Of a stretch of 64,000 nt of DNA, positions 38,710 to 61,799 are shown in pieces. The DNA comes from a virus, in IMG/VR virus record IMGVR_UViG_3300000980_000024. The stretch is one strand, 5' to 3'. The notes under the pieces were generated by a model. It was not told the DNA's origin. It did not search any database and saw only the letters and a list, made by a program, of their open reading frames with translations. Position numbers and translations under genes: made by a program. Positions within the stretch are counted from its first letter, which is position 1. Each line of letters begins with the position of its first letter.

Positions 38710-39285
38710 TTATAATGAATATAACGATAACCCTGTACCGTCACCAGGTGGTACAGGAGGTGTGCCCGTTATACTAACAGTTGCAAAATTAGATATAGGG
38801 TTAGTTCCAGAAAATAAATAACTAAATGTGCCATCTGCATTCTCTTCTTCTATAACCGTATACGGGCCTGAGTTTAAAGTCAAATCACCTGCCTCTATAG
38901 AGTAAGGTTTATTTTCTAAGAAAGCTTCCCACGGGACACTTAAATTATTATTACTAGATACTTGTAATAAGAATGGTGTAGTACCACCTTGATCTTGAAA
39001 ATTATCAGATCTTATTGAACCAGTTGTAGCTGGTAGATTAGGGGAAAGAGGGGCTACATATTCTGTCACAACCCCTGTTATAACTGAACCCATTGAATCA
39101 ACATAAACTGTTTCAATAATTTGTCCTGTACTAGGCTCATACTTCACTATAGGAGTTACGTTAACAGGCTGTCCGTCAACATTCACTGTAATGTTTTGTA
39201 GAGGTAATAGACCCGTTTGATTACTGATACGGGTTACTATTTCATCTTTGGCACACCTAATAATATTTATTAATTCTTGACTCAT
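38710..39285 (-). CDS. putative fibre/spike protein 1
   Basis: Shares the TPIV....STG.I....YVD..G..ITG module with the next two ORFs. Confidence 0.5.
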   Translation of the reverse strand: MSQELINIIRCAKDEIVTRISNQTGLLPLQNITVNVDGQPVNVTPIVKYEPSTGQIIETVYVDSMGSVITGVVTEYVAPLSPNLPATTGSIRSDNFQDQGGTTPFLLQVSSNNNLSVPWEAFLENKPYSIEAGDLTLNSGPYTVIEEENADGTFSYLFSGTNPISNFATVSITGTPPVPPGDGTGLSLYSL

Positions 39286-39315
39286 GTTAATACCTAAATT
39301 ATTTAGTTTGTTAAA

Positions 39316-40254
39316 TTAAGGGTAGTCAGTAATAGTATATTCTAAAATTGTACTAGGTTCCCAAGGTATCCCTGTATCGATAATGAAATTACTACTAAAA
39401 TTAAATACCGCCTCTGATGATGAGTTATTTCCGTTTCCGTTATTATGAAAAGGTATAGAGAATGGTAGCGATTGTTGTACACCATTTATATCTACTATGT
39501 TACCTTGGGTGACAATAATTTGATGAGTATCTTCGGTGCCTGTAGGATCTGCAGGCAGATCTAATAAATACTGTTTAGGCTCAACGTCATAGCCTGAATC
39601 CAAGTCTGTGAAAAATTCTATTCTGATCCCACTTGTATAATCCGCGTCATACCCGATGGTTGCCACATTATCTAACAAGAATGATACATCTGTAGTACTA
39701 TTATCTTCTGTACAGCTGGTACAATCCTTACAATCACAAGAATCTAATTCTGAAACCTGACCTGTAATTGGATTACCTGTGGGGTCAACATAATTTTTAC
39801 CCACAATTTCACCAGTAGATTGATTCAACAATACAATAGGGGTCACATATGTTGGGTCACCACCATCTATGCTTGCGCATATAGCTGGCATTGGTATACC
39901 TTGAGCAAGCGCTGCATCAGGTGATGATAATGAAGCGAGTATTGCGGCCAGTATTGCCTCTACTTGATCAGTGTTATCGTCAAGCTCTTGAAGCAACGTG
40001 GCAACATTTTCCAATTCACTTACAGTCTGAGCAGTGTTAGTAGTTGTTGCACTGGTGTCTGAGTTTATATTATTTAAGATAGTTTCTATTTCGTCGGTAT
40101 TACCTTCAATATTTCCTAAATTACTTATCATGTCATTAAACATGGTAGTGTAATCTATGGGTTGCAAACCAGCTAATGAAACTATCACTTCATCTAATTT
40201 ATCTAAGACATCCTTACCTATACACATAAGTTGATTTATTAATTGAGCACTCAT
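39316..40254 (-). CDS. putative fibre protein 2 (coiled coil, shared module, CDCKDC)
   Basis: Heptad-like N-terminal half, beta-rich C-terminus. Confidence 0.55.
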   Translation of the reverse strand: MSAQLINQLMCIGKDVLDKLDEVIVSLAGLQPIDYTTMFNDMISNLGNIEGNTDEIETILNNINSDTSATTTNTAQTVSELENVATLLQELDDNTDQVEAILAAILASLSSPDAALAQGIPMPAICASIDGGDPTYVTPIVLLNQSTGEIVGKNYVDPTGNPITGQVSELDSCDCKDCTSCTEDNSTTDVSFLLDNVATIGYDADYTSGIRIEFFTDLDSGYDVEPKQYLLDLPADPTGTEDTHQIIVTQGNIVDINGVQQSLPFSIPFHNNGNGNNSSSEAVFNFSSNFIIDTGIPWEPSTILEYTITDYP

Positions 40255-40268
40255 TTTTACTGATACCT

Positions 40269-40814
40269 TTAAGTTGTTGATGTTGCAGACTCATCACATT
40301 GTAAACAGTCGCAATCACAAGGATTACCTACTGTAACTGTGCCTGTGACTGGTTCACCTGATAAATTATAATACACTGTTGAAACACGTTGACCTGTTTC
40401 AGGAACAACAGAAACAACCGGATACACGAACATTGTGTTAACCACCCCATCACCCAGTAAGTCTACACTGGCACATACTGACGGCAGGTGAAAAGTATTA
40501 AATGACGCACCTGTTGATCCAGCAGGTGTGCCTGTTAATCCAGTAACAGGTACTGACGCAACAGTATCTACTGATAATGTACCAGTTTTATCGCAAGGTA
40601 CAGATAAGCAAACATTAAAATCACCAGCATAAGGAATTTGACCCAAAGGGTTAGACGCACTTAATTTGATTATTGGTGTGTTAGACCCTATTGGTGTGAC
40701 TGAAGCGGAACCTGTACCAGTAAATGTTACCACTGATTGTTCCGTTGTAGTTATTGCAGTGCATTCGTTGAAAGTATTGCAATCTGAAGCAAGGGCTTGG
40801 AGAACAACAGGCAT
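40269..40814 (-). CDS. putative fibre/spike protein 3
   Basis: T/G/V-rich; shared module; C-terminal PCDCDCLQC. Confidence 0.5.
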   Translation of the reverse strand: MPVVLQALASDCNTFNECTAITTTEQSVVTFTGTGSASVTPIGSNTPIIKLSASNPLGQIPYAGDFNVCLSVPCDKTGTLSVDTVASVPVTGLTGTPAGSTGASFNTFHLPSVCASVDLLGDGVVNTMFVYPVVSVVPETGQRVSTVYYNLSGEPVTGTVTVGNPCDCDCLQCDESATSTT

Positions 40815-40885
40815 ATTTTATCACCACCTAACATTTAATATAATTAATCCGATGACAAATACTAATTCCGAGTATTGAAATCCTA

Positions 40886-43800
40886 TCACCTAACATGCGC
40901 CAAAGCAAGTGTCAGAGATTTAATGTTATTGCGTACAGCATCGATGTCAACGTTAGCTCTGTTGATATTAACTTTTTGATCATCAATTGCATCAGTAATT
41001 ACTTTAGATACACGATCTCTAAATATAGAACGCCCCTGCAGCAAAGCATTTACTTGGTCTTTCCCAGCTATTCGTGACGCAACTTTGCGTTTATCATCTC
41101 TACTAGTCATGAAACCTTGGATCTCTTCATTGCTCATACCTAATTGTTGATATGCTTGAACAAACGTAAGGTTGCCTGTGTCCATTTCATCAGCCACATC
41201 AATCATTTCAGACACAATGTCTGCAGTTTGTTCTGTCGTAAGTAAATCACCAGACATCAATCGAGACAAATTAGACTTAATATCTGCGTTTCTACTGAAC
41301 GATGACCATTGTCTAGCTAAATCATAACCGTGGGACCGCACTGTTTTCTTTAGATCAAACACTCTGACCTTAGTTCCTGTGGTGGAAATTAGTTCTGACA
41401 CACCATCTTGCATCGCTTTGATTTGATCTTCATTGGGGTTTTCGATACTTACCCCGTTTACCACGTCATAGATTGCTGCAGGTTTGTGATAGAAAGCATC
41501 TTTAACCCACGTCGGTATCGGTGCAAAACTTTCACCCAACTCAAGAAATGCTTTCGACTTAGTTATTTCGTTACCATATTGATCCTCAGGTTGCTGATCA
41601 GTTAGTCGAATAAATTTACGGATCAAGTTACTGTTATCATCTTTATTACCAGCAAACTTATTTACAAAACCCCACACACTATTCTCGAAAGAGAACTCGC
41701 CGCTGTCTGAGTCAGGAGGTACTGCCAAACTTAAATTAATGTTTGTTCTGGCGTTGTTCCACATAGTCACTTCCCATTTGTCAGTGTCAACTATCTGACG
41801 CACTGGTGTGTACAATGATGATCCATCGTATGAAAATCTATGTGCTATTGTTTGAACAGCCTGTAATTTCTCGCCACTTAAAACAATTTCATTATCTTCA
41901 ACTTCCTGATCTTCGTTAATTGCATCCAATAATGACGAAATACCTTGACTAGCCAGCGGTATACCGCCAGCAATCACAGCGTAGTTTGTTGCGTCAGTCA
42001 GTGCTAAACCTGCTGTTCTCGCTGCTATACGACCACCCAGCACGTTTGCATATTCTTTATGTCCTTCTTTCACGGCACGAGTGTATTCGCTAATGTCCTC
42101 GAACCATAACCGATGACTATCAACCATGATGCGTAAAAATTGTTGCGGGTGCATCATAAAGTTACTGGTGAACGGGTGCCACTTCGCGCGAGCTAAACTT
42201 TTAAACCAAGTCGGTGCTAACGACCAAACGAATGTCTCACGTGATGTACGGTTTACTGCTTCAGGTACAGCCATACGCAAAATATCTCTGTCGTATTGTT
42301 GCTTACCTTTTTCTGTATTTGGGTAGTTGTCACGAAGAATTACAGTCTCAGCCTTAGCAACTGCTAATTCTCGATTAAGTATGTACGGTAATACCTTTGA
42401 GTAGTCATCACCAAACGAATAAGCGGTTTCCAACGCATCGTTTATCTTTTCCAACTTGCGTCTAGTTTCTACTCTCGTTGCTTCTCCTCCGGGGTTACCT
42501 GTAAAATCCATCACCCCAGTTACTAACTTTTCAAATAAATCAGTTCGGCCCACTTCAACATCTAATGACGTAACACCAGCATTAGATAGATAATTCTCTT
42601 CTAATTCACGGGCGATCAACTGAGGGTACGTTTCATTTTCAGTTACACCAACTCGATTACGCCGATCCCACAATTCTTTAATGCCCCGACCAGCTGTACC
42701 GAATCTGTTCAGATAGGCGTAGTGTCCCCCCATACCAGATAGAAACGCACTACTGACATAGTTAGAAGCGCCTAGGTCAATGTTTTGCACGGTTAGGTTT
42801 TTCTTTGTGTACGCAAATAATCTTTCTATCCAGTTTTCCTCAACAGCGTCTATTGTTTTAAACATACTGTTGGTTTCTTCAGCGATGAACTCAGGTACTT
42901 CTATGTGTGCAAGTATTGAACCCTTCTGATACTTTTGTAGTATCGGACTACCACGCCACGAATTAGTGGCGTCTGCCCCCTTAAATCTAGCAATACCAGA
43001 ACGAAATAACACCTCTGAGTAATCATTTGCCCAGTTTAATATGGCCAATGTTTTATTTTGTTGTTCCCTTGTCCCAATCAAAACTTCAAGTGGTTCAGTT
43101 ACAGGGTCTAAAAATTTCATTAGTAACCTGTCGGTAGCTACGTTTTCATTAAGAGTTCGACCTCTAACACCATCAACCAACTGCAACTTATCTGTTGACC
43201 TCAGTGACGATTGTTTTGGGTCATGATCTTCAACGTGCTTACTTAAATAATCAATCACTACTTGGTTTACTTGGCTTTGGTTTGCATCTGGTCCAGCTTG
43301 TTCTCTGGCCCACAGTTGAATTATCTTTTTACGGTGCCCTAAGTTTATAATTGGTTCCAGTTTATTGATCTTATTTATAGCAGATTTTTCTGTGATCTTA
43401 CCGTCACGTAGGTCAGCTTTAACAATAGCAACATCTTTAATTGCTTGACTCACACGGTCTTCAACACCACGACCTACTTTATTAGGTGCTGTGAAATCAG
43501 TTAATATATCCTGAACCAACCTGACCCCATCAGGTGTGAATGATCTGTACTCACGATGTCGGTAATCTTCTGTGAAACGATTTTTAAAATCTCTAACCTC
43601 AGTGATCATTTCATTTAATGTGTTGCTGGTGTTACCGGATCTATTGTCATTACTATGTACTGCAACCATGGCGGCAGCTAATCGTTCCGACTTGGTTATT
43701 GCTGCTTGGATTTCACGTACACCATCAATAACAGCAGCGTTACCTTCTGTTATTAACTGGTCAAGTTCACGGGCATCTTTAACATATCTACTTTTTTTAA

Positions 43801-46800
43801 TCCCCGCATTACTTAATCGTTTCTCATATGTTTCATTTTCTGAAACAGTAAAATCAAAAACTGGCGCGGTGCTCAGTTCTGACTCTGAATCAAAATTTCT
43901 AGTTTTCTTTATCAATGAATCGATATGGCTGAATCGACTAGCACCCTCTTCTGTTTTTAATCGCGCAGATATACCTTTATGTTTGTTGCTCGCATCACGT
44001 AAACCATTGACTCGATTACGAAGCATTGCCTGTAAACCACCAGAACTGATGTTGGTGATTTTATTACCTAAAAATTGCTCACCAACAAAACCTTTAACGT
44101 ACCTGTCTAGTCCCAAATTAACTTTAGAAACCAAATCGTTATTGTCCTTAGCGTTAGCGTGTAAGTTTATTAATCGGGCAAAGTGCTGTGAGTCAGCGTC
44201 ATTATTACTAACATTAATAGTTTTACCTGACGGAGTTGTTCGTATTTGAACACGACGCTTCTTACCATTCAAACCATCTTGAAGGTAAGTTACATGTAGT
44301 TTACGATTACTGGTAGCTGCTGTTTGTGCCTTAACAATGTTTTCGATAAACTCTCTTGATGGTTGGTCACTACCAGATGTTAAATCTTGTATGATGCTCA
44401 CAGCACCATTGTCGATCACGTCTTTTTGTAATTGATTAAATTGTTGCTCAGTTAACACGCCGTCCATGCTCCCACTCTTTATGTCCAGCAATGTTGAGTT
44501 GTGTTTAGCAAAGTACTCATGCACTAACATCCATCGAGTAGCTGGGGTTGTTGCATCAACAGTTACATTGTAGTGTCTCAAATATGGTTTGAGTTCTGCA
44601 CCAATTCGGGGTTTAAGTATTTCAAAAGCTCGATCATACATTTTTTGAAACCTCGCATCACCCCAAGAATCCAACCCAAAGTGAGCTACTTCATGTGATA
44701 TTGTATTAACAACGTCACTAAGGCTACGCTCTGACGGTCTTGCGTCAATATTTATTTGTACACCATCAGGGCCACTAAATGATATTCGCCCTGTTGCATT
44801 GGTTCCAACAAGAGGGTTGTTTTCCGCGGTAGTGTGTATGTTAATTAAGTCCCTTATTCTCGGAGGCAGTGCATCTAAGTAAGGATCTAGGTCGCTAGGT
44901 ACCCACTCACCAATAGTGCTGGTGTCAGTAACACTGTTGATACTGTTAAGTGTTGATGAGACTTCAGCGTTTACAAGTACGTCGTTAATACTTTCTCTGT
45001 CGGACAGTACGATATCAACATCAACACCATCTGCATTGCCGGCTGTCAGTGTCGCAGTGCCGTCATCAGCTAACGAAAACAACTCGGCGTTTTGTCTTGG
45101 TGCCGCGTATCCGGCGATTTTTCTAGCAAAATCAATTTGGTAATCCGAATCAATGGTGCCCTGACGAACCTGTGGGTTTATTGTAGCAACAACTGTTGTT
45201 GGTCTACCTACTGATTCAGTAGCAACTTCTTTAGCGCGAACAATTCTAGGATCTTGTGGGTCAGTTTGAACCACCTCATCATAATTTTGATTAGGGTTTT
45301 CTTGATTGAAAACATCTCTCTCTACTTCATTAGTAACATCTAAAAGACCTGCTCTACCACCAATGTCTACAATGTTTTCAAACCTAACACTGTCATAACC
45401 GTTTAGTTGTGCCGCCTTTGTTACAGTGTTAGTGTCCACCACGTTAGTATCGAGGTCACCAAATAATTGACTTAATTTAAATGATTTACCTTTATCATCA
45501 GTCACTGTTGCATCTAGTGAATTCTCTGTGAAGTCCCCGCCTTTTAGATCAATCGTTAATTGATTCTCATTACTCACAGCTATCTGTGAGACGTTACCAC
45601 CACGTTGAGTGTATGTTCTTGCTGCAATTGGTGATGACGATGCGAACGTAAAGTCATTGGTGCTGACAGCACTGTCTGCATCATGACCACGAAAGAACAC
45701 TTCACTGTTGCCAGCAGTTGCAGATATTGAATTGAGGTCGCTCTGTCCCGGCTCTAAAATTGGCTGCTCTATTGTTTCAGCAAAAAACCTACCGTCATTT
45801 TCAATTATTTGGTAGTCCTGATTTATTACCAAGTCTGACGTATCTTTTCTTACTTGTATTGCCCGTTGAGCAGAACCCTGACTAGCATAACCGTTTTGAT
45901 TACCCACTGTCTGTGGTGTGAACACGGTTGTTTCCTGAGTGTTAGTGGTTTGCTCTGACTCAGTGTTGGTAACTATTTCACCAGTATCAGTTTGATCTGG
46001 TTCACTGACCGCTGTATTTGGTTGGTTTACTGTCTCAACTGGTTCTACGTTAGGTTGTGATGTATCGGTTGTTTGATCAAACTCAGGGGCAACTCTCTCA
46101 GGTTGGGAATCATTGGTCGTATCTGTAGGTTGTGATTGAGCGATTCGTCTACCGTCAATTAAACCAAGTAATGCGTTAATTGTGAAACCCGCAGCACTAC
46201 CAACCTCACCTGCTTCAACTAACCCTGAGTAAACATCACGGTCAGGGTCGTAACCAACTATATTCTTGGCTACTTGATTACTGGCGTACTCACTCACTAC
46301 CTCCTGAAGACCTTCTTCAAAAGCACCAACACTACCTCGCTTCAACGCTGTGACAATGCGCCCATTAGTTTCATCATTTAAAAACTTTAAGAATGTTGGT
46401 GAGTCAACAAAACCAAGGAACCGCCCAGCTGCTTTAAAACCCGGAACAGCCTCTAGTGCACCAAACGCACCTCCCCATAAAGCAGTGTTTGCTGCTGCAT
46501 CAGGGTCAAACTTTTCCCCATTTGCAAGTAACGTTTGCTCATAGTCATCCACTTGGTATTGAGATCCTGATGTCACACCCAGCGAACCAGTAGTTGCCAC
46601 GGCGCCCGCTGTCCCACGTGCTAAACCACCAGCAAAACCACCACCTATATACGTAGCCAATTGCCCAGCTATTGATGCTGCTTTAAACCATATGGATTCT
46701 TCGTTACCTTCTTCCGCTATATCGGCACCTAAATCCTGAATTGACTGACCCAACCTGCCAATTAAATCCCCGGATAAACCATGCTCAGCAACAGCTTGTT

Positions 46801-47566
46801 GCATTTCTTCCGCAGTATAGTAATCAAAAAGTTTAAAGTTACCTTCGTCATCTCGCGTACCTATACGTATATCGCCAAATTTTGTACCAATAGTATTACC
46901 GAGAGAGCTTATCCCTTCTACAGCTTTACCCAGTGTGTCAAGTACGCCTTGTCCAATAAATGCTCGCCCAGCACTTTCTAACCCACTTACTTCATCAGTA
47001 GTGGTTTGTTGCGCAATAGTTTCTTGTTGGCGATCAAACCTTGTGTCAAACAAGGATCTGTTCTCACCGACAGTACCTTGTGTATTATATGGTGTCTCGA
47101 TGAATGCGTTATCTAAACGCTCAGACAAAGATTTTCTGTAGTCAGATTCACTAACACCTGGTGGTACTCTAAACTGTGGGTGTGATGGGTTATCAATCAA
47201 GTTGTCTAAGTAACTGTCACGGTATAAACCTACTTGATTCTCTTCGTACAACCCTTCCTTGTTGTTATCATACACGTACGCCATAAAGTTATCAGGGTTT
47301 ATCTGGTAATCTTCATCTGGTTCTGGTAAACCAATAAATGGTCTTGCGTCAGGTATGTCGTCCAATGTTTGCAGTAATACTTGATTGTTATCACTACCCT
47401 TAAATCGATCAGACTCTGATAGATCACGGGCGTACCCATCAATAAACTCTGAGTATAATTGTTGTTTTTGTTCTTCTTGTAGCTCTTGATCAGGGTCAAC
47501 ATCAAAAGAACTTAGACCCGAGTTAGCGTAACCCTTAAAGTCGAACGTATCAAAAGTGATTGACAT
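40886..47566 (-). CDS. large internal virion/ejection protein (polyvalent: ART-like and zincin HExxH domains)
   Basis: 2226 aa among virion genes; A/G-rich hydrophobic N-terminal region; FRGH...FTFASS...A.TY...GYDSV; HEVAH with a downstream HE. Confidence 0.75.
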   Translation of the reverse strand: MSITFDTFDFKGYANSGLSSFDVDPDQELQEEQKQQLYSEFIDGYARDLSESDRFKGSDNNQVLLQTLDDIPDARPFIGLPEPDEDYQINPDNFMAYVYDNNKEGLYEENQVGLYRDSYLDNLIDNPSHPQFRVPPGVSESDYRKSLSERLDNAFIETPYNTQGTVGENRSLFDTRFDRQQETIAQQTTTDEVSGLESAGRAFIGQGVLDTLGKAVEGISSLGNTIGTKFGDIRIGTRDDEGNFKLFDYYTAEEMQQAVAEHGLSGDLIGRLGQSIQDLGADIAEEGNEESIWFKAASIAGQLATYIGGGFAGGLARGTAGAVATTGSLGVTSGSQYQVDDYEQTLLANGEKFDPDAAANTALWGGAFGALEAVPGFKAAGRFLGFVDSPTFLKFLNDETNGRIVTALKRGSVGAFEEGLQEVVSEYASNQVAKNIVGYDPDRDVYSGLVEAGEVGSAAGFTINALLGLIDGRRIAQSQPTDTTNDSQPERVAPEFDQTTDTSQPNVEPVETVNQPNTAVSEPDQTDTGEIVTNTESEQTTNTQETTVFTPQTVGNQNGYASQGSAQRAIQVRKDTSDLVINQDYQIIENDGRFFAETIEQPILEPGQSDLNSISATAGNSEVFFRGHDADSAVSTNDFTFASSSPIAARTYTQRGGNVSQIAVSNENQLTIDLKGGDFTENSLDATVTDDKGKSFKLSQLFGDLDTNVVDTNTVTKAAQLNGYDSVRFENIVDIGGRAGLLDVTNEVERDVFNQENPNQNYDEVVQTDPQDPRIVRAKEVATESVGRPTTVVATINPQVRQGTIDSDYQIDFARKIAGYAAPRQNAELFSLADDGTATLTAGNADGVDVDIVLSDRESINDVLVNAEVSSTLNSINSVTDTSTIGEWVPSDLDPYLDALPPRIRDLINIHTTAENNPLVGTNATGRISFSGPDGVQINIDARPSERSLSDVVNTISHEVAHFGLDSWGDARFQKMYDRAFEILKPRIGAELKPYLRHYNVTVDATTPATRWMLVHEYFAKHNSTLLDIKSGSMDGVLTEQQFNQLQKDVIDNGAVSIIQDLTSGSDQPSREFIENIVKAQTAATSNRKLHVTYLQDGLNGKKRRVQIRTTPSGKTINVSNNDADSQHFARLINLHANAKDNNDLVSKVNLGLDRYVKGFVGEQFLGNKITNISSGGLQAMLRNRVNGLRDASNKHKGISARLKTEEGASRFSHIDSLIKKTRNFDSESELSTAPVFDFTVSENETYEKRLSNAGIKKSRYVKDARELDQLITEGNAAVIDGVREIQAAITKSERLAAAMVAVHSNDNRSGNTSNTLNEMITEVRDFKNRFTEDYRHREYRSFTPDGVRLVQDILTDFTAPNKVGRGVEDRVSQAIKDVAIVKADLRDGKITEKSAINKINKLEPIINLGHRKKIIQLWAREQAGPDANQSQVNQVVIDYLSKHVEDHDPKQSSLRSTDKLQLVDGVRGRTLNENVATDRLLMKFLDPVTEPLEVLIGTREQQNKTLAILNWANDYSEVLFRSGIARFKGADATNSWRGSPILQKYQKGSILAHIEVPEFIAEETNSMFKTIDAVEENWIERLFAYTKKNLTVQNIDLGASNYVSSAFLSGMGGHYAYLNRFGTAGRGIKELWDRRNRVGVTENETYPQLIARELEENYLSNAGVTSLDVEVGRTDLFEKLVTGVMDFTGNPGGEATRVETRRKLEKINDALETAYSFGDDYSKVLPYILNRELAVAKAETVILRDNYPNTEKGKQQYDRDILRMAVPEAVNRTSRETFVWSLAPTWFKSLARAKWHPFTSNFMMHPQQFLRIMVDSHRLWFEDISEYTRAVKEGHKEYANVLGGRIAARTAGLALTDATNYAVIAGGIPLASQGISSLLDAINEDQEVEDNEIVLSGEKLQAVQTIAHRFSYDGSSLYTPVRQIVDTDKWEVTMWNNARTNINLSLAVPPDSDSGEFSFENSVWGFVNKFAGNKDDNSNLIRKFIRLTDQQPEDQYGNEITKSKAFLELGESFAPIPTWVKDAFYHKPAAIYDVVNGVSIENPNEDQIKAMQDGVSELISTTGTKVRVFDLKKTVRSHGYDLARQWSSFSRNADIKSNLSRLMSGDLLTTEQTADIVSEMIDVADEMDTGNLTFVQAYQQLGMSNEEIQGFMTSRDDKRKVASRIAGKDQVNALLQGRSIFRDRVSKVITDAIDDQKVNINRANVDIDAVRNNIKSLTLALAHVR

Positions 47567-47569
47567 TAG

Positions 47570-48061
47570 TTACCCTTTAGTTAATAAATAATCAAAAAAG
47601 CTTTTTTCTTCTTTTGTTAAGTCCGATTCAACATCCGACTCTGTTAGTAATTCAATAACATCTTTCCTAGTTGCTAACCGAGGATACATGATTCGATGTG
47701 TATCTGCGCGTGATTCATCAATCTGATCAATGAATTCTTTATGTTCGGTTATGTCATCATTAGGATAATGAAACGCAACAATCATATCATTGATGTTACC
47801 AAGGTTCTCATAATTTACTCGATCTATTGCTAACGCTGCCGTGACGTTAGTTTGTAAACCAAACACATCTGTTACACCTACTTCAGTAGCCTGTTCAATT
47901 GTCATTGGCATAAATCCAAACTTACCACCGTCACCGATGTACTCATCGTCACCTTCAGATAACAACAATGCTCTTGTCACAAACCCAATAGGGTCAGGGT
48001 GACCAAAAGGTTTAATAAAACCCTCATATATTTCCCTCAATTGCAATGAATCTAATATCAT
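47570..48061 (-). CDS. virion-associated degenerate lytic transglycosylase-like protein
   Basis: ALLLSEG, KFGFMPMT, N...A......MIVAFHY parallel the SLT motifs. Confidence 0.5.
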   Translation of the reverse strand: MILDSLQLREIYEGFIKPFGHPDPIGFVTRALLLSEGDDEYIGDGGKFGFMPMTIEQATEVGVTDVFGLQTNVTAALAIDRVNYENLGNINDMIVAFHYPNDDITEHKEFIDQIDESRADTHRIMYPRLATRKDVIELLTESDVESDLTKEEKSFFDYLLTKG

Positions 48062-51189: not shown

Positions 51190-51689
51190 TACTTACTCAA
51201 CGACTCAAACATTCTAGTCATACCAGCATCAAGCTGAATAAGTTGACGGAACTTACGGTCAAATTCTAAAGCAAACGTATGTCCTTTCCATAATGATGCA
51301 ATCAATGTAATGGTATCAAACTGTGTCATATACACAGCTTTCGATTGCTCAACTAAACTAACTGGTGGTTTATTCGCTGAGTTCATTGCCGCCATGTATT
51401 CCATCATTGTTTGGAATTTAATATCAACCATCATTAGTGATGATCGGATTGCCGCAAAATTTTGAAGATAGAACTCATTAGTAGTTAACCCTGTATCAAA
51501 ACGCTTCACCATGTGCAACGCTTCCGGTGGCACAGGTACTTGTGTTTGATTAGTCATAACGCCGATTGCAACCATTAGATCCAATGTCAGCGTAGACGTT
51601 ACATAGTTAACAACTTCATGAACCTCTGGTGCCTCTGAAAAATGGTCATGTATGGCTTTACTTATATTATTTGGTGTTGAATCCGTCAT
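51189..51689 (-). CDS. hypothetical virion-region protein
   Basis: 166-aa ORF, GAGGT RBS. Confidence 0.6.
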   Translation of the reverse strand: MTDSTPNNISKAIHDHFSEAPEVHEVVNYVTSTLTLDLMVAIGVMTNQTQVPVPPEALHMVKRFDTGLTTNEFYLQNFAAIRSSLMMVDIKFQTMMEYMAAMNSANKPPVSLVEQSKAVYMTQFDTITLIASLWKGHTFALEFDRKFRQLIQLDAGMTRMFESLSK

Positions 51690-53433: not shown

Positions 53434-53997
53434 TTACTCGTCACAACTTATGTCGCTAGTTGGTACACTTTTTAAGTCACAACCAGATGTCACAGTGACA
53501 ATTCGATCACTAACTACTAACGGACCTTGTGGTATACCATTAGGGTATAAATCACAGAATACAATGTTACCTTTAACTTCTTCAATGATTGCATCTTTTA
53601 ATGTACCAAATGTGACGAACCCTGACGGGCAACCGTCATCATCTAATATCGACAACTTGGTTTCGTCTGTTAACGTTGTTGGTTCTGTGTTGTTACAATA
53701 ATCAGGTAGCCCGTCACCATCTGCATCATTGTCATCACCCACATCTGGGCATGTGACTGTGAAACAACTATTGGACGGTAATGTTATTTGTTCCTCATTA
53801 AAAGCAAACAGGATTACTAACCCATCACTAGCTAAACCTATCGAACCAGAATACGTGACGTCACCTACTTCAATTACAAATTGACAATCGTCTCCCACCT
53901 TATCGAATACGTCATCCCAGTTGCTAATACATTCGGGCCCAAGTACCGCTGTTGTGGTTATTATTGGACAGCTTGTTACTACAGTAAACATTGACAT
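53434..53997 (-). CDS. Cys-rich virion protein
   Basis: About 10 Cys in 187 aa; DNDADGDGLPD Ca-binding-like motif. Confidence 0.55.
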   Translation of the reverse strand: MSMFTVVTSCPIITTTAVLGPECISNWDDVFDKVGDDCQFVIEVGDVTYSGSIGLASDGLVILFAFNEEQITLPSNSCFTVTCPDVGDDNDADGDGLPDYCNNTEPTTLTDETKLSILDDDGCPSGFVTFGTLKDAIIEEVKGNIVFCDLYPNGIPQGPLVVSDRIVTVTSGCDLKSVPTSDISCDE

Positions 53998-54566
53998 TAC
54001 TCTGCTACCTCTGTTTCATCAGCAGTTACTACATTGTTAACTCTTGTTATTCCGTAACCATCCCGTGTCTTAACCTTAGCTGTGATGTATTTTTTATTAC
54101 AGTACAAACAACCATCATCAGACTTAGATCGACCACACCCGCATCTTTTTTCGGGGTCACATGTTGGTTCAACCCACATTGTTTTATTGCAAGTATCTGT
54201 GGTGTTAGCGCCTTTAATGTAATGCCCCGGCGCCTTAATAATTTCTAACTTACCAAACACACAAGCCTTATCACAGTCATCAGCAGGTACTGTGATTAAC
54301 TTCGCGTCATAGAAACCCTTAGGTGCTTCACTTAAAAATTCATCACTAATTTCAAAATGAGCACATGAGTCAGCGTTGACAACATAACTAGTCATCTCAT
54401 AACTGGTGCTGTGCTTATGACCCCTGCGTCTCAACTTCAAGACAATGTTAGGGTGATCACAAATTAAATAACTACCATTTGCTCGGCCAATATCAATAAT
54501 TATTTGATTGGTCTTCGGTCCAACGTACAAACGTGGGTTAGCATGCGCAACCATCATTACCTCCAC
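53997..54566 (-). CDS. Cys-rich virion protein
   Basis: About 10 Cys in 189 aa. Confidence 0.55.
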   Translation of the reverse strand: MEVMMVAHANPRLYVGPKTNQIIIDIGRANGSYLICDHPNIVLKLRRRGHKHSTSYEMTSYVVNADSCAHFEISDEFLSEAPKGFYDAKLITVPADDCDKACVFGKLEIIKAPGHYIKGANTTDTCNKTMWVEPTCDPEKRCGCGRSKSDDGCLYCNKKYITAKVKTRDGYGITRVNNVVTADETEVAE

Positions 54567-55179
54567 TGGCGTTTGATGTCATAGGTTCGTAGTGAAGTGT
54601 TAACAAACCACCGCCAGTCAGAGCGTTTCGCTTAGCTTTGATGACGTTATGTCGGTAGTACTTTTCCAATCGGTCAACCTTGGTAGTGAATCCCCATGTA
54701 CGCGCTTGCATTCGTGCCAGTCTCCATAACATGTTGGACAGTATTGCATCATAGTGTTCTTGAATAAAATCAGAATCAAACTCACAATGCTCTAATCGCT
54801 TAGGTATCAACGACACCTCAACGTACAAAGCTTCATCAATATCTTTAGTCGGACAACAAGTCAGTGTCAGGCTTTTCTTATCGTAGCAATTCTTAGGGAT
54901 ATTAATTTTGTTTTCTTTAAGGCTGATTACACCATGGACTAAATAACCTTCTGGTGGAATCAGATCATATCGCTGAACATCTTTGTATAGATCAATCGGG
55001 ATCTCTGTGCGATACAGCTCACTGTCACGCATAAACTCAATGACCGCACTACGGTACACTGTCTGTACAGCAATTTTAATTTCTTTGGTTGTCTCGACTT
55101 CATCAGCATCTTTCTTGGGTGCAATGTGTAGCGCTACCTCTTGAAGAAAATCCTCATACCCAATCTTACTCTTGTTCAT
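54538..55179 (-). CDS. putative head-tail adaptor/tail tubular protein
   Basis: Position; EVSLIP...F..EHYDAI...L.RL....W pattern. Confidence 0.55.
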   Translation of the reverse strand: MNKSKIGYEDFLQEVALHIAPKKDADEVETTKEIKIAVQTVYRSAVIEFMRDSELYRTEIPIDLYKDVQRYDLIPPEGYLVHGVISLKENKINIPKNCYDKKSLTLTCCPTKDIDEALYVEVSLIPKRLEHCEFDSDFIQEHYDAILSNMLWRLARMQARTWGFTTKVDRLEKYYRHNVIKAKRNALTGGGLLTLHYEPMTSNASGGNDGCAC

Positions 55180-55904
55180 TAGTCAGCCACCTTACGGCTA
55201 CCGTAATTGTAATCATCTTCACGTAAACTAAATTCAATACGCAACTTTGTCTCAACAAAAAACTGGACAGCTTGAAAATGTAATGTCGCTCTTTCTAAGT
55301 TACTACGTGACTCACTGTCGGTACGGAACAACCACCATAATGCATAGTCTGCAATCATCGAGTGGTATTGACAAAGGTTTGCATCATCAATAGTTTCAAT
55401 TGACGGAGTTGGTGCACAAAGATAAGTTAGCACCGTACCGGCTGGGATGTCAGGGTTGAACTTCAGTACACTAGTACTACCATCAGCAACAGTCCAATTA
55501 TAAGTAATCTCTTCATCATCATTATTTTCGTCATCACTTGATGATGCACTTTCACTGACACACAGGTCACCAAGTAAAGGTAGTAAGTCGATTGAGTCCT
55601 CATCCTCAGACTCATCTTCTTGATTCAAGTCAACACACTGTGTGTCACCGATTGACATGTTCACCAAACTAATGAACCGTTCACATTGAGAACTTAGGTC
55701 AACAACACATGTACCCTCAGACACTGTGTATGTTTTTAATTCAGAAAATTCTTGAGGGATTAACGAGTATAGGTAGCACAACCCTAACTGTAAAGCATCG
55801 CAAATATGAGATTCTGTCCATTCAGTATACGTATCTTGCTTTACACCACTAGGACTCTCACAATGATCGTTAAGTTGTCGTGCTACAAACTCTTTAAGAC
55901 TCAT
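55179..55904 (-). CDS. putative head-tail adaptor
   Basis: VARQLND...WT...I.DAL; DYALWW; F pattern typical of adaptors. Confidence 0.55.
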   Translation of the reverse strand: MSLKEFVARQLNDHCESPSGVKQDTYTEWTESHICDALQLGLCYLYSLIPQEFSELKTYTVSEGTCVVDLSSQCERFISLVNMSIGDTQCVDLNQEDESEDEDSIDLLPLLGDLCVSESASSSDDENNDDEEITYNWTVADGSTSVLKFNPDIPAGTVLTYLCAPTPSIETIDDANLCQYHSMIADYALWWLFRTDSESRSNLERATLHFQAVQFFVETKLRIEFSLREDDYNYGSRKVAD

Positions 55905-56309: not shown

Positions 56310-56333
56310 TCGTTATTCTCCGTTAGTTATAAT

Positions 56334-56367: not shown

Positions 56368-56390
56368 CCAATTCAAGTCAATGAATGTGC

Positions 56391-57137
56391 TTACTTGCTA
56401 TCTGTGCAGGTATTGCAGTCACCCAAAGTTTCTGGGCAGTTACAAGTATTAGTGATCTTCTGTTTATCAAAACAGATTTCATCAGCAATAATACCTGCTG
56501 CAAAAATAGGAAGCTGACCTTCACCACACGAACCACAGCAACCACCATCACCTAATGTAGCAGGAACAGCTGTGATTGTTAATCGTAAGTAAAGAGCCTG
56601 ACCCAATAATGCTGGTACTGGAGGGATAATGCCCTCGTAAACCAATGCGTCATTGTTGCGGAAGTCAGATGCATCACCGTCATAAAGACACGCTTGTTGT
56701 TCAGCGTCTTTGGTTGAATTCATCATTCCGTTACCAAAGTCATATGAAATCGTCGGAGTACCTGCAAAAGCAGCCACACCAGATGCGTCACCGTCATTAG
56801 CAACATACGCATCACAGACATCGGTGACCGATACCAATTCAGCATCTGCTGTCATACCAGCTAGGGCAGAATAACTACCCATCCATAGACCACGGTAAAC
56901 AGCAGCATCAGGAAACACCGCAACAAAAATCTCGTCACCCACAGCTAAACTAGATAAATAGTCAGAGTATGCGTTTAACGCGAGTTCTGTACGATGGCTG
57001 TTGCCGTCAACTTGACCAGTTAACGCTGGATCAAAGAAGACTTGTTCTGCTTCGCTCGTAGTTAGTGGGACGCGAATCCGACCATCGTCGAGATTGCGTT
57101 TGTAATTACCACCATTGAATAAGAAAAATGTGCTCAT
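56391..57137 (-). CDS. putative capsid cement/decoration protein, Cys-rich
   Basis: Between the MCP and the terminator; GGCCGSCG and TCNCPETLGDCNTC. Confidence 0.55.
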   Translation of the reverse strand: MSTFFLFNGGNYKRNLDDGRIRVPLTTSEAEQVFFDPALTGQVDGNSHRTELALNAYSDYLSSLAVGDEIFVAVFPDAAVYRGLWMGSYSALAGMTADAELVSVTDVCDAYVANDGDASGVAAFAGTPTISYDFGNGMMNSTKDAEQQACLYDGDASDFRNNDALVYEGIIPPVPALLGQALYLRLTITAVPATLGDGGCCGSCGEGQLPIFAAGIIADEICFDKQKITNTCNCPETLGDCNTCTDSK

Positions 57138-57152
57138 TTGGATTCCCCTGTA

Positions 57153-58193
57153 TTAATCACAAGCCGGAGCTAGTATAGGTTTCTCGTCATTCACAACAAT
57201 GTGACCCTTACCTAAGAAACGGCAATCGTACACATGCATGTGCCAGTAGTAGACGATCTGATTAATCATCGCACCTGTCGCATCTTCCATATACGTTTTG
57301 TTTTTCAAACGTATTGACGCCTTAGCACCACGATACCGCTTACCGAATAAAATTGGATAAACAGTTTGTGGTTCGCCGCCAGAAAGACAAGTCAAAGACT
57401 CAACGCAGTAAGATGTAATAACATCTAAACCACGTGGTTTGTGTGGAAAATAATCACGAAACAACGCACAAGAACCACAGTCGCCAACAGAGTCATACCT
57501 ATTGTATTCAGAAACACTCATCAGTACAGACTCAATTTCTTGAGGACCAAAGATGAAACCGTCAACACTTGAATGACCGAACTCGTTAGGGACACTAGCA
57601 GTACGGGGCATTTGTTTGATGACGTTGACAACTTGCTTGAACCAAGCGTCAGCATTGTCTTTGTCAAATAAAACAGCGGCACTTGGGGCACCAACTACTT
57701 GACCACCAGTAGTTAAACCAGCACTGTTACCTGTGTTTTTAGGGTGTACGCTTGTTAGTAATGTACGGTAGAAACGAGTCATCAATGCGTTACGACCATT
57801 TTCAATGGCAGTTGCAAGTTGATCGTTGTACCACATTTTAAGAACAGGGAATTGATTGATGCACTCCATCTGATCCTCGTCCATCTTAATTTCAAAACCG
57901 CCTTTACAGAAGCCATGAAATGTCAATGTCCGTGGAGGACTAAGTGTTTGTCGTTTGTATGCAGCATCCACCGCAGAATCAGACATAGAAGGAAGTTGAG
58001 CATGATCTTCAACTAGATAAGTAACCGTATTACAAATATCTAAACTAGAATCGATCTGAAGAAAAAGCTCAATCGCCAACGTGCGTCGATACTGATAAAT
58101 AATATATTCCGACAATCGAGTACCCATGAGTACTTGAAGGTCTTTATTATCCATCGCTGGTAGTTGCGCAGCATGGTTTATGCCGTTTAACAT
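57153..58193 (-). CDS. major capsid protein
   Basis: 346 aa after a scaffold-like gene; dedicated strong promoter and downstream terminator. Confidence 0.65.
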   Translation of the reverse strand: MLNGINHAAQLPAMDNKDLQVLMGTRLSEYIIYQYRRTLAIELFLQIDSSLDICNTVTYLVEDHAQLPSMSDSAVDAAYKRQTLSPPRTLTFHGFCKGGFEIKMDEDQMECINQFPVLKMWYNDQLATAIENGRNALMTRFYRTLLTSVHPKNTGNSAGLTTGGQVVGAPSAAVLFDKDNADAWFKQVVNVIKQMPRTASVPNEFGHSSVDGFIFGPQEIESVLMSVSEYNRYDSVGDCGSCALFRDYFPHKPRGLDVITSYCVESLTCLSGGEPQTVYPILFGKRYRGAKASIRLKNKTYMEDATGAMINQIVYYWHMHVYDCRFLGKGHIVVNDEKPILAPACD

Positions 58194-58278
58194 ATGAGAA
58201 ACCTCAATAAAAAGTTAAGTCCGAATTGTTTTGTCTGGGGTTCCGTCAAACGTCCAACGATGCGAAGGACTAAATCAA

Positions 58279-58307
58279 AGCATACTTAGTTGCAATATGC
58301 TTGTCAA
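58279..58307 (-). promoter_or_regulatory. sigma70-type capsid promoter with an embedded inverted repeat
   Basis: TTGACA-N17-TATGCT; AAGCATA(58278-84)/TATGCTT(58296-302). Confidence 0.75.
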
Positions 58308-58324
58308 ATTTTTACTAGAAGTGG

Positions 58325-58951
58325 TTATCGTCGTAACATATCCGCTTCTTCAGCCATTAGTCTTGCATGTTCTTCAGAGAACTGATTAAGGTTTGTAAAC
58401 TCACCTCTATCAAGCTTTGCATACAGATCGTCATACTTACCCTGCATGTCTGTCGCAAGCTGCTGTTCTCGGGTGTTAACGATTGGTTGTCGTCCCGGTA
58501 CGTTTGCAGATGCTTCAGCGAAACTTTGTTGTAATGTGCGCAGCGTAGTTAGGCGTTGTTTTACATCTGGGATCTGATTGATTTGATCCATCCTGCCACG
58601 GCCATAATCGTCGTTACCTTTTAGGAAATCTTCAAAACCCGGTGTGCTTTGTTTGATTTGATCGAACTGCTGATCGAATACCAACTGCATAGCTTCATTG
58701 TCAGCGGCCAACTGACGTTGATCGAGCACATCCGTTAACTGAGAAACAAGATCAGTATTAGGTGTTGCTGCTGGCGTTGTGTCAGTTATAGCAGGTGTTG
58801 CTGGTTGTGCAGCTAAAGGTGGTGTCTGTGAATTGTGCTTAGCAATTGCACCAGCTAACTTATCATAATCAATCTCAGGTACTACCGCTTGAGTAGGCTG
58901 TGATGATTCATTATTCGCAGGTGGTGGTGGGTTGTTAACTATGTCATTCAT
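58325..58951 (-). CDS. putative scaffolding protein
   Basis: Low-complexity P/Q/T N-terminus, helical, immediately upstream of the MCP. Confidence 0.6.
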   Translation of the reverse strand: MNDIVNNPPPPANNESSQPTQAVVPEIDYDKLAGAIAKHNSQTPPLAAQPATPAITDTTPAATPNTDLVSQLTDVLDQRQLAADNEAMQLVFDQQFDQIKQSTPGFEDFLKGNDDYGRGRMDQINQIPDVKQRLTTLRTLQQSFAEASANVPGRQPIVNTREQQLATDMQGKYDDLYAKLDRGEFTNLNQFSEEHARLMAEEADMLRR

Positions 58952-59333
58952 ACTTTATCTCCGTCAGATACTTCAAAATTGTTTGTGTTTGAATAAGCAT
59001 TGCTTTGTTACCAGCAGGTGCCTGTCCGATTAACCACGCTTTAAGCTCGTCAATATAAATCAGTGTCTGCTCTAAATCAAGTACTGCTTTAACTGGTTTA
59101 CGTACTATCCATGGTCTGGGTCCAGAATTATCAACCAATAAATAGTTCAGTGCGGTCAACGTATTAAACTCACCCAGTATACGACTAACCATGTAAGTAA
59201 ACGTATCGTCATCTTGATCGGCTGTTGAGAAAGAAGTCAGAAGCTTCATTCGCTTCAATGCTTTATCTTCCAATAACTGACGTATGAACTTACGCTCAGT
59301 GTCGTCAAACCAAGATACCTGCAGTGTTAGCAA
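58944..59333 (-). CDS. hypothetical protein
   Basis: 129-aa ORF in the late operon. Confidence 0.55.
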   Translation of the reverse strand: MLTLQVSWFDDTERKFIRQLLEDKALKRMKLLTSFSTADQDDDTFTYMVSRILGEFNTLTALNYLLVDNSGPRPWIVRKPVKAVLDLEQTLIYIDELKAWLIGQAPAGNKAMLIQTQTILKYLTEIKYE

Positions 59334-59821
59334 GACACAGACCCCGTTAATTGATAAGGAACAATGGTCATATCAACAACCGTTGGGTTTGCACAGTCTG
59401 CCAGTGATGGGTTCTCGCATCGATCAGCGATGATGTAGTAGTCGCCCGGTCTAGTTATGTGAATGAAATCATTGTAAGTGTTGTTGAATCGGTCCCAACC
59501 TAATCGCAAGATACTTCGATTATCATCTGTGAAACTTGTGGGTGGTCCCTGAATTACATCTTTGTTAGGTGTGTAGCAACGATACACTTTATCAATGCAG
59601 TTGTCGGGTAACTTACACTCAGGGTCAACCAATGCAGGGGCTATGCGGATAACATAAAATGTTGTGCAACCACGGTAATTATCGTGCGTAGTCATTTCAA
59701 GTACAGCAGCTTCACCTGCTAATACTTGAAATGTTGAACCCCTGAAATAATTCTCGCACTCGGTATAAACATTACCGGCTTGACGTGAGTCAAATATAAT
59801 CTTGGCTTGATTACTCATCAT
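59327..59821 (-). CDS. Cys-containing virion-region protein
   Basis: Likely start MMSNQ near 59821 after GAGTGGC; several Cys. Confidence 0.55.
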   Translation of the reverse strand: MMSNQAKIIFDSRQAGNVYTECENYFRGSTFQVLAGEAAVLEMTTHDNYRGCTTFYVIRIAPALVDPECKLPDNCIDKVYRCYTPNKDVIQGPPTSFTDDNRSILRLGWDRFNNTYNDFIHITRPGDYYIIADRCENPSLADCANPTVVDMTIVPYQLTGSVSC

Positions 59822-60308
59822 CGCCACTCGAAGTATCATCAGCAATGAGTTGTTCCATGTGAGACAACACACCGCCACTGATGGCAGCTAATGTGATCTC
59901 ATCTTGGATTGTTGATATTTCCAACTCTTCCAATTTTTTAAACTTAGCGTACAACATGGTTGCTTTCTCTAAGTTCATTGCGTCTTGTGCTTCCAAGATT
60001 GAAGTGTTTAATGCTTCGATCTCAGCTAAACCATCTTCATTGATAAGACCACCAGCAATACCCAACCGACCCATTGGTGGGTTTTTGAACTCTTCAGTTA
60101 ACACAGCGTAATCTTCCTCAGTTATCTCAGCGACTTTGTACATGTCGTCCATTGGGTAACTGATCGCAGGTTCACCGTTCAAATATAAAGCTGTCATTAG
60201 AGTCAGACCTTCTTTCTCTGATCTCGACCCTAACGTGTAGTATTTATACTCCCTAACTTGTGCTGTTGGTTCATTGTCGTCAACAACTATTTCGTTTTCG
60301 TCTGTCAT
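59811..60308 (-). CDS. acidic hypothetical protein
   Basis: 165 aa, GAGG RBS. Confidence 0.6.
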   Translation of the reverse strand: MTDENEIVVDDNEPTAQVREYKYYTLGSRSEKEGLTLMTALYLNGEPAISYPMDDMYKVAEITEEDYAVLTEEFKNPPMGRLGIAGGLINEDGLAEIEALNTSILEAQDAMNLEKATMLYAKFKKLEELEISTIQDEITLAAISGGVLSHMEQLIADDTSSGDDE

Positions 60309-60320
60309 GATTGACCTCTA

Positions 60321-61799
60321 TTATTCAGTTCGTAGCCACAAAATTTGTGCTGTCATTTCACCGTGATAAAACAACGCAGGTAGTGACGCAATGTTAACAT
60401 TGTTCGTGTCCAACGCTAACCACCACTGACTGTATCGTTGGACATTTGCACCAGCCGCAACAATCACATCCTCTGTCATAATTGCACTACTGACAGACTT
60501 CTCAAATAAATCTTGATAACCATTGCCTGACGGAGCATCTTCATAACCAAGATTCGATGACCAACCATTACCCAATGTAACAATCGATGAGTTCATATTA
60601 AGATCAAAGTATGGGGGAAGTGGTGCGTTAGGGTCAGCATCCAATGTGTAAATAACTGACTGATCCAAGTCACGCTCAACATCTTCGTCTATTGGGCCCA
60701 ATGGTCTATATGACGCATGACCTTTCACAGTAATGCGCGCTATGGCTGGCGAGTCAGTAAATGGATTAGTGTCATTGATCGATAAGATACCTGCACCACC
60801 TAATACACCTGGTGTAACTGCACCACTTATAAATGTGTTATCACGTGCTTGATAAACGATGTTGCCTCTGGCGTCAGCTGCTGTCGGTGTGAATGCAACA
60901 CATACCGCACCACCAACTGCTGTCTCAGATGAAAATGCTGCAGGGCAACACTTTATTGCACCTTTACCACAGTTACCATTTTCATCTACGAAAACAACAG
61001 ATGCTCCATTAGGGATTTGAGTATCACCGTCACCATCTAGTGTGTTGAGTGATTCACAAATCTCAGGGATTTCTGGTTCCTCAACAACAACTCTTAATCG
61101 TTTCCTGACAATGCTACCGTCTGGGTTACAAAACCAAGCCCATTCGGTTGTTGCTGTTCCATCAGTAGCCAGTGTAATCGTGCCGTCAGTCGGAGGACAT
61201 GTTGTGGTCAGATGATAATTGATACCACCATCATCGTTTGGTGTGGCTGTTAGAACGAGAATGTTACTGTCTTCAGATACTGTCGGTACTGGTGTTGGTG
61301 CTACTGCACCAAAGTTTACTGTTCTCTGTACACAGTTTTCCAAGTCAGTAAATGTAAACGACCCACCTTCAGAGGGGTCAATGTTTACTGGTACACCATC
61401 TGGGAAAACATTTTCCTTCGCACATAAACATTTCAAGAACTGATCAACGAACTCGTTGAGAGTTAATGTACCAGTGTTACAACAACCATTTGCATCAAGA
61501 CGTAAAGGTATCTGCAGTAATTCACAAAGGTCGTTAATGTTGTTAATTTCAAGTGGTTCTAAATCACACAGGCTTGACAAGTCTACATACAACCAGTCGT
61601 GATCACATGTGTGATAGTACAATTTTTTCGAACCATCACAATCTTTGTAGACAGCAAAAGGAAGTTGGTCAGGTTCTGGTTGCCATTCGGGAGGGGCTGT
61701 TGTCGATGTGGGGATACAACTTATATCCAGTTCATCAGGACAAGGAAGAGTGCCTTCAGCATCACAGGTCTTACTACTGCAATTGTTATTGGTCGCCAT
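60321..61799 (-). CDS. Cys-rich fibre-like virion protein
   Basis: About 20 Cys in the N-terminal ~295 aa; Cys-free beta-rich C-terminal domain. Confidence 0.55.
   Translation of the reverse strand: MATNNNCSSKTCDAEGTLPCPDELDISCIPTSTTAPPEWQPEPDQLPFAVYKDCDGSKKLYYHTCDHDWLYVDLSSLCDLEPLEINNINDLCELLQIPLRLDANGCCNTGTLTLNEFVDQFLKCLCAKENVFPDGVPVNIDPSEGGSFTFTDLENCVQRTVNFGAVAPTPVPTVSEDSNILVLTATPNDDGGINYHLTTTCPPTDGTITLATDGTATTEWAWFCNPDGSIVRKRLRVVVEEPEIPEICESLNTLDGDGDTQIPNGASVVFVDENGNCGKGAIKCCPAAFSSETAVGGAVCVAFTPTAADARGNIVYQARDNTFISGAVTPGVLGGAGILSINDTNPFTDSPAIARITVKGHASYRPLGPIDEDVERDLDQSVIYTLDADPNAPLPPYFDLNMNSSIVTLGNGWSSNLGYEDAPSGNGYQDLFEKSVSSAIMTEDVIVAAGANVQRYSQWWLALDTNNVNIASLPALFYHGEMTAQILWLRTE

Follow-up and report, generated by a model that had tools for sequence, protein, structure and literature searches.

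We analyzed a 64,000-nucleotide stretch of viral DNA (IMG/VR record IMGVR_UViG_3300000980_000024; the window, meaning this whole stretch), which represents the genome of an uncultured short-tailed phage, of ~64–68 kb with a GC content of 37–42%. The longest metagenomic sequence bearing the major capsid protein (MCP) of the window spans 67,655 bases. The plus strand holds mostly replication and host-takeover genes, among them a DNA polymerase, a primase, helicases, methylases and a Tad2-like protein, and the minus strand carries a lysis and envelope block (an SLT endolysin, an OmpA-domain protein and lipoproteins) plus a long virion operon (Table 1). Here we describe how cysteine is distributed over the virion proteins. 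Those of the exterior are rich in conserved cysteines, whereas those of the putative ejected payload contain none, and this contrast is real, highly significant and conserved.

Table 1 Virion-related features of the window and their cysteine content.
Feature	Coordinates	Strand	Length	Cys	Remarks
Putative portal Cys insert	32095–32199	+		7	Residues 70–104 of a 688-aa protein downstream of terL
Two fiber-like proteins	39316–40814	-	181 and 312 aa	9 (181-aa protein)	181-aa protein at 40269–40814; role from position only
Giant putative ejected protein	40886–47566	-	2226 aa	0	
Transglycosylase-like protein	47570–48061	-	163 aa	0	PHROG 13449 transglycosylase, weak match, E 2.5e-4
Putative ejection protein	48058–49377	-	439 aa	0	Between nozzle and fibers, like T7 gp15
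Nozzle	51686–53431	-	581 aa	20	Cys mostly at both ends (residues 43–127, 452–555)
Tail-associated protein	53434–53997	-	187 aa	10	Eight core Cys and one extra pair
Tail-associated protein	53997–54566	-	189 aa	10	CxC...CxxC cluster at residues 136–156
Virion structural protein	54538–55179	-	213 aa	6	PHROG 437, E 1.1e-4
Adaptor-like protein	55179–55904	-	241 aa	9	Scattered Cys; PHROG 399 structural protein, E 1.2e-4
Jelly-roll cement (decoration) protein	56391–57137	-	248 aa	10	Terminal 8-Cys module, residues 200–244
Major capsid protein	57153–58193	-	346 aa	9	Cys 54, 96, 111, 239, 242, 263, 269, 324, 345
Scaffold-like protein	58325–58951	-	208 aa	0	Directly upstream of the MCP
Cys-rich small protein	59327–59878	-	183 aa	10	C88 and C183 in 7/7 genomes
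Virion-module protein, no assigned role	60321–61799	-	492 aa	20	All Cys within the first 300 residues

Cysteine content of the virion proteins

We recounted cysteines by script over the proteins of the window, which reproduced the hand counts of an earlier first-pass annotation. The eleven proteins assigned to shell, tail and fibers hold 119 Cys in 3173 aa (3.75%), against 136 in 8969 aa (1.52%) for the non-virion proteins of the window (Fisher p = 1e-12), and the content of the Cys-rich proteins ranges from 2.6 to 5.5%. The same annotation had seen no Cys in the 2226-, 439- and 163-aa proteins or in the scaffold-like protein, and the recount agreed (0/2226, 0/439, 0/163 and 0/208). Combined, the first three, which form the putative payload, contain 0 Cys in 2828 aa (depletion p = 1e-16, Fisher). 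The scaffold-like protein is Cys-free in all eight genomes used for comparison (the window and seven related metagenomic phage genomes), as are its counterparts in T7 (gp9, 0/307) and in phage GP4 (a 313-aa protein, 0/313). The periplasmic lysis and envelope proteins encoded at 34126–38744 are also Cys-rich, with 11 Cys in the 224 residues of the SLT endolysin (36905–37579) and 6 in a 119-aa protein (35266–35625).

A contrast of this kind could be a by-product of composition or low complexity in large proteins, devoid of functional meaning, and relative to the shell set, the putative ejected set has somewhat more Gln, Arg and Glu and less Tyr, Pro and Met. Against this, the absence of Cys extends to every relative examined: the putative ejection proteins of the window and its relatives contain none in 11,683 aa, for which the chance is about 1e-77 at the phage's own background rate, and the giant proteins among them are only about 19–27% identical. 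Base composition is not the cause of the lack of Cys in the giant open reading frame (ORF) at 40886–47566, since two other reading frames of the same DNA contain 40 and 133 TGY codons, and Trp (0.67%) and His (1.2%) occur at ordinary levels in the ejected set. In addition, the cysteines of the shell are its most conserved residues. A by-product without function is thus already contradicted by the conservation data, and we regard it as very improbable.

Conserved cysteines in shell, tail and fibers

No close relatives were found among the INPHARED phages (tblastn, megablast), the IMG/VR or the GTDB genomes, and 41 homologs of the MCP (43–69% identity) were found in metagenomes. The MCP family is very small and isolated: its profile, searched against 1.8 billion representative proteins, matched 18 clusters at E ≤ 0.001 and 8 at E ≤ 1e-30. 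Across the eight genomes, no residue class of the shell proteins is better conserved than Cys. Conservation among homologs was a check that the first-pass annotation had itself named, and the shell cysteines are conserved in 35 MCP homologs, in the eight genomes and in 38 sequences of the 187-aa family.

The AlphaFold2 (AF2) model of the MCP, with a predicted local distance difference test (pLDDT) score of 73.8, has an HK97 fold. Foldseek comparison of the model to the PDB gave 358 matches at E ≤ 0.001, the best being the capsids of N4 (7.7e-10), Pan3 and GP4, and the top 50 are all phage or archaeal-virus capsid proteins, gene transfer agent proteins or encapsulin shell proteins. The MCPs of the clade contain 8–11 Cys (2.6%), most having nine, and Cys conservation is 0.89 versus 0.54 for other residues. 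Of the 33 columns without variation among the 35 homologs, six are Cys. Every homolog carries C239xxC242 and C263, with a fourth Cys at 269 or 276, which in sequence pattern only resembles the two half-sites of a structural Cys4 zinc knuckle or ribbon; all five MCPs without C269 have C276, which is absent from every other aligned sequence. C54, C239xxC242 and C263 are retained down to 15–20% identity.

The 248-aa protein is a cement protein with a jelly-roll fold, predicted to form a homotrimer. Its model aligned best (VIA-align) to chain J of the Ralstonia phage GP4 capsid (8h89_J; Z 10.1, 141 of 155 residues aligned, root-mean-square deviation of 3.8), followed by the Pam1 and KHP40 cement proteins (7eel_H and 7dou_4, Z 7.6). 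The trimer model has an interface score (ipSAE) of 0.85, with a best control of 0.00, a partner pLDDT of at least 76 and at least 72% of contacts shared by three runs. Of 30 proteins solved as pairs, 20 attain that ipSAE mark, as does 1 of 23 solved as single chains, and the score may in part be due to likeness to solved cement trimers. The eight cysteines of the terminal module are arranged CCxxC...C...CxC...CxxC, and six of the protein's cysteines (C200, C201, C204, C222, C232 and C241) are invariant in the eight genomes. In most relatives, the module is followed by a variable extension of 80–120 aa (L009:11063-12103, L005:742-1839, L010:10227-11306; L-numbers denote sequences used for comparison), and the L009 homolog has a He_PIG Ig-like domain. 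The cement protein of the window stops right after the module.

In four further proteins, sets of cysteines recur. C74, C115 and C163 of the adaptor-like protein, C108 and C132 of the 213-aa structural protein, and C102, C136, C153 and C156 of the 189-aa protein are found in all eight genomes. The adaptor homolog in L004 has a weak Pfam match to SU10_adaptor, and the L009 homolog of the 189-aa protein has a PF01345 (CLIPPER) domain, which we take to be a surface-display domain. In the 187-aa family, with 38 homologs at 24–58% identity, eight Cys occur in every sequence or in all but one, and 32 of the 38 have exactly eight Cys. Its extra cysteines co-occur, as 10 with 23 and as 18 with 70, and Cys conservation in the 187-aa protein is 0.77 versus 0.30 for other residues.

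The nozzle was matched to PHROG 511 (E 2.5e-26, residues 106–462) and by blastp to a 577-aa virion protein of GP4 (E 1.3e-7), so that the identities first given to the MCP, cement and nozzle hold, through the HK97 fold, the GP4-type cement match and PHROG 511, respectively. Eight N-terminal cysteines of the nozzle are present in 7–8 of the eight genomes and are spread out. The 492-aa protein matched no family in Pfam or PHROGs, and its homologs contain 7–31 Cys. Scattered cysteines and no CxxC motif characterize the adaptor-like, 187-, 183- and 492-aa proteins.

The two fiber-like proteins share a module of ~70 aa (BLASTP, 38% identity over 72 aa, E 8e-10) that begins with a single Cys and closes with a cluster of four, CxCx(1-2)CxxC. 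The fibers had been described as ending in such a motif; in the 312-aa protein, CDCKDCTSC lies mid-chain (residues 173–181), where it closes the shared module. A 130-aa domain follows the cluster in this protein. The Cys-rich insert reported for the putative portal is real, with its seven cysteines in residues 70–104 including a CxC...CxxC pattern. The 688-aa protein itself has no Pfam or PHROG match, and it is called a portal from its position only. A 687-aa protein of the relative L002 (L002:944-3007, minus strand) has 39 Cys, with at least 12 regularly spaced CxxC pairs at residues 442–678, and resembles a zinc-ribbon-like repeat array. This protein, which is distinct from the portal, is encoded on the opposite strand and upstream of the virion operon.

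Cysteine-free putative ejection proteins

Downstream of the nozzle the operon continues with four small ORFs, the genes for the 439-, 163- and 2226-aa proteins, and the fiber-like genes. The order of nozzle, ejection-type genes and fibers is the same in seven relatives and in GP4. Cysteine is absent from all seven homologs of the 439-aa protein (415–788 aa), from the five homologs of the 163-aa protein that were examined, and from two giant homologs of 2494 and 2572 aa at about 19–27% identity. From their position, size and composition, and from the weak transglycosylase match, we infer that these three proteins are ejected with the DNA. Pfam, PHROG and PDB sequence searches gave no match for the giant, the 439-aa and most small virion proteins; the 163-aa protein has no Pfam match, and the 439-aa protein gave sub-threshold leads only in a protein atlas. 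No RNA polymerase domain was recognized in the giant protein.

The giant protein contains a zincin-like HEVAH motif at residues 958–962 (window 44681–44695), which is not kept as HExxH. Both related giant proteins have Glu in place of the first His (consensus SEEVAHFG), and only E959, V960 and H962 are invariant. There is no peptidase or ADP-ribosyltransferase (ART) match for the giant protein in Pfam.

We compared these genes to known ejection operons. Like N4 (gp50–52), DEV (gp71–73) and T7 (gp14–16), the window groups a small, a mid-sized and a giant protein within its virion module, with next to no Cys, and includes a piece that weakly matches a transglycosylase; in T7, such a domain stands at the N-terminus of gp16. 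Here, in contrast, the order is mid-sized, small and giant, and the transglycosylase-like part stands alone as the 163-aa protein. No similarity to T7 gp15 was detected, and no RNA polymerase domain was recognized in the giant. By our own count, T7 gp15 (0/747) and gp16 (0/1318) together have no Cys in 2065 aa. For the homologs of DEV gp71 and gp72 in 191 Schitoviridae, Cys frequencies of 0.00075% and 0.0055% were reported, and this suppression, likewise for N4 gp50, was ascribed to passage through the oxidizing periplasm (PMC11445570).

For the cement, no structure matched better than that of Ralstonia phage GP4 (Gervaisevirus, MH638294; PDB 8h89), which is also among the best matches for the MCP and has a homologous nozzle. 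After the nozzle, it encodes Cys-free proteins of 509 aa (0/509) and 3224 aa (0/3224). In contrast to the window, its shell is Cys-poor (MCP 1/369, cement 3/157, nozzle 2/577, fibers 0–1), and its cement is without the C-terminal Cys module. Sequence similarity between the window and GP4 is detectable in the nozzle only. The head module of GP4 also has an annotated CsrA (carbon storage regulator) gene between portal and MCP (L013:2287-2484). The T7 shell is Cys-poor too (MCP 2/345). Since T7 and GP4 combine Cys-free payloads with Cys-poor shells, the Cys-free payload and the Cys-rich shell are independent. We therefore rejected the idea that crosslinking of the shell forces the payload to be Cys-free, a tie that the first-pass annotation had drawn. 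Its interpretation is partly supported and about half right: the payload lacks Cys for an already published reason that does not depend on the shell.

Outside the virion operon, Pfam identified the SLT domain, the OmpA domain (37849–38334, E 1.5e-15) and a lipoprotein signal in the lysis and envelope block, and the OmpA-domain protein and lipoprotein signal argue for a Gram-negative host. No tRNA genes were found in the window. A Tad2-like domain is encoded at 20856–21320 (Pfam E 2e-27), and genes of the relative L011 have precomputed Pfam matches to Tad3 and to the Acb2/Tad1 hairpin (L011:144-749, L011:2070-2285). Several sponge genes, anti-Thoeris and anti-CBASS, are thus present in this clade.

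Disulfide, metal and free-thiol readings of the shell

Taken as a whole, the distribution may be explained by two independent, already described rules combined in one phage, which we consider somewhat the likelier account. By the first rule, the 439-, 163- and 2226-aa block would encode proteins of the virion interior, ejected along with the DNA and purged of Cys like T7 gp15 and gp16, N4 gp50–52 and DEV gp71–73. The likely reason is that such proteins would exit through a narrow tail channel and refold in an oxidizing, DsbA-containing periplasm, where a Cys could end up locked in an incorrect disulfide. By the second rule, the clade would have loaded its outer proteins (MCP, cement, adaptor, tail proteins, nozzle ends and fiber modules) with conserved, even-numbered sets of cysteines. 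Most of these would be reduced during assembly in the cytoplasm and oxidized after lysis to disulfide staples within and between subunits, as in Agrobacterium phage Milano, with metal binding as a possible alternative for some CxxC clusters.

Our preferred reading of the Cys-rich shell is a new podovirus example of a Milano-type disulfide-stapled virion. The Milano virion contains a disulfide network, and dithiothreitol (DTT) abolishes its extra robustness (PMC10491603). In Milano and in phage 7-7-1, structural proteins contain 2–5% Cys, conserved in relatives; the Milano MCP (10/465) has Cys near its C-terminus, as the window MCP has its penultimate C345, the sheath has 16/503, and the tape measure, which exits through the tail, is Cys-free (0/778). 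Bases 1–50,000 of the 68,531-base Milano record likewise hold no dedicated oxidase gene. Milano differs in being contractile-tailed and without sequence relation to the window phage, which also has CxxC and CxC clusters. Its disulfides were seen in cryo-electron microscopy maps and DTT weakens the particle, whereas the window phage is known from sequence alone. Disulfide-linked tail tubes (PMC13576161) and the Q-beta and PP7 capsids are further precedents.

Disulfides in the shell of the window phage would account for the way in which cysteines come and go. The core of eight and the paired extras of the 187-aa family favor disulfides, as expected for bonded partners, and the loss of C269 in the MCP, always accompanied by C276 in the five sequences concerned, is the pairwise behavior expected for disulfides. 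The parity of total Cys counts is informative only for the 187-aa family, and not for the MCP, cement, adaptor or nozzle. A phage thiol oxidoreductase (thioredoxin-, DsbA-, DsbB- or Erv1-like), which the first-pass annotation had not recognized either, was found neither among ORFs of at least 100 aa (Pfam) nor among those of 45–99 aa (CxxC scan). Seven of the ORFs of at least 100 aa were searched against PHROGs only, namely those for the adaptor-like (55179–55904), 213-aa (54538–55179), 189-aa (53997–54566), 187-aa (53434–53997), 181-aa (40269–40814) and 191-aa (38710–39285) proteins and a putative ssDNA-binding protein (22892–23596). The sole real small CxxC protein is a TraR-like zinc finger (15119–15334). 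Given no oxidase gene, oxidation would be spontaneous after lysis, or else metal would be loaded in the cytoplasm.

Several points weigh against the combination of the two rules. On the payload side, phmmer against the PDB returned nothing for the 439-aa or giant protein, and hhalign of their families against T7 gp15, the GP4 509-aa protein and the GP4 giant gave probabilities below 1%; ejection families diverge fast, with DEV gp72 and T7 gp15 sharing 7% identity (PMC11445570). Moreover, the composition used to infer ejection is the very trait being explained. On the shell side, Cys totals are often odd, with nine in most MCPs and a mix of odd and even totals for cement and nozzle, the cement module is modeled at pLDDT < 50, and spontaneous oxidation after lysis becomes less likely if the habitat is anoxic. 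C239xxC242 with C263x5C269 in the MCP, the CCxxC...CxC...CxxC cluster of the cement, the CxC...CxxC of the putative portal and the CxCxxCxxC of the fibers look like metal half-sites, and in a preprint on gut phages most conserved MCP cysteines lie buried without a partner in capsomere predictions (10.64898/2026.07.03.736451). The last two points lead to readings of their own.

Dense Cys clusters could be knotted disulfides or Zn or Fe-S (iron-sulfur) sites. The clustered cysteines might thus be metal sites, structural Zn(Cys)4 knuckles or Fe-S at fiber junctions, loaded in the reducing cytoplasm with no need for an oxidation step, and disulfides would be few or absent. Consistent with this are the invariant CxxC of the MCP with two more cysteines 21–34 residues on, the retention of these positions to 15–20% identity, and the shift of the fourth Cys from 269 to 276 in place of its loss, together with the 8-Cys module of the cement, the CxC...CxxC of the portal insert and of the 189-aa protein, the fiber-module CxCxxCxxC with its ferredoxin-like CxxCxxC spacing, and the lack of a detected oxidase gene. 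Phage lambda gpL has an Fe-S cluster in the tail tip. Arguing the other way, Pfam searches of seven proteins (MCP, cement, nozzle, putative portal and the 492-, 312- and 183-aa proteins) gave no family, four Cys-rich proteins (adaptor-like, 187-, 183- and 492-aa) are without CxxC, the conserved N-terminal cysteines of the nozzle are spread out, and the extra cysteines of the 187-aa family come in twos, not fours. We hold metal sites to be a possible but unfavored explanation of the clustered cysteines. It is slightly more doubtful still that the clusters of the MCP, cement, putative portal and fiber junctions are Zn or Fe-S centers built into the capsid lattice and tail.

Alternatively, most shell cysteines could be free, buried thiols that serve hydrophobic packing or kinetic stability, with neither bonds nor metals. 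In the gut-phage study, 83% of conserved MCP cysteines are buried and 1 of 47 is in disulfide range in predicted capsomeres, the median Cys content is 0.51%, against 0.21% for INPHARED MCPs, and the excess loses significance for MCPs with six or more Cys (10.64898/2026.07.03.736451). The odd totals in many proteins of the window phage would also suit free thiols. The two sets of MCPs are alike in their HK97 fold, in having more Cys than reference phages, and in positions conserved within clusters; the study covers the MCP only and favors unpaired buried thiols, whereas the MCPs of the window clade carry 8–11 Cys. The Cys content here (2.6–5.5%) is 5–10 times the gut-phage median, and many of the cysteines lie in short modules with pLDDT < 50, appended to known folds, and not in hydrophobic cores. 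Invariant clusters (CC, CxC and CxxC) and a penultimate Cys at the C-terminus are not features of packing, and the strict 8-Cys counts and the paired gains of extra Cys speak against free thiols as well. We therefore judge free thiols to be decidedly unlikely for most of the shell.

Disulfide staples, acquired independently of the purge of Cys from the payload, are the reading to which we return for the shell, and each half of the explanation matches a pattern known in other phages, making this a clear new example and not a new principle. If the clusters do bind metal, they would be a new way of stabilizing an HK97-fold capsid, with a shell held by metals at hundreds of sites per particle; we know of no precedent for a metal-held shell among HK97-fold capsids. 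The Cys modules of the cement, nozzle and putative portal are candidate natural staples and could guide the engineering of more robust particles or shells. As the comparison with T7 and GP4 shows the two rules to be separable, zero Cys is a useful marker for ejected proteins in unannotated podovirus genomes. The window phage and its relatives thus provide a clean, natural and clade-wide example of both rules in one particle, in which proteins that would thread out of the virion tolerate no Cys, and those that stay outside accumulate conserved Cys.

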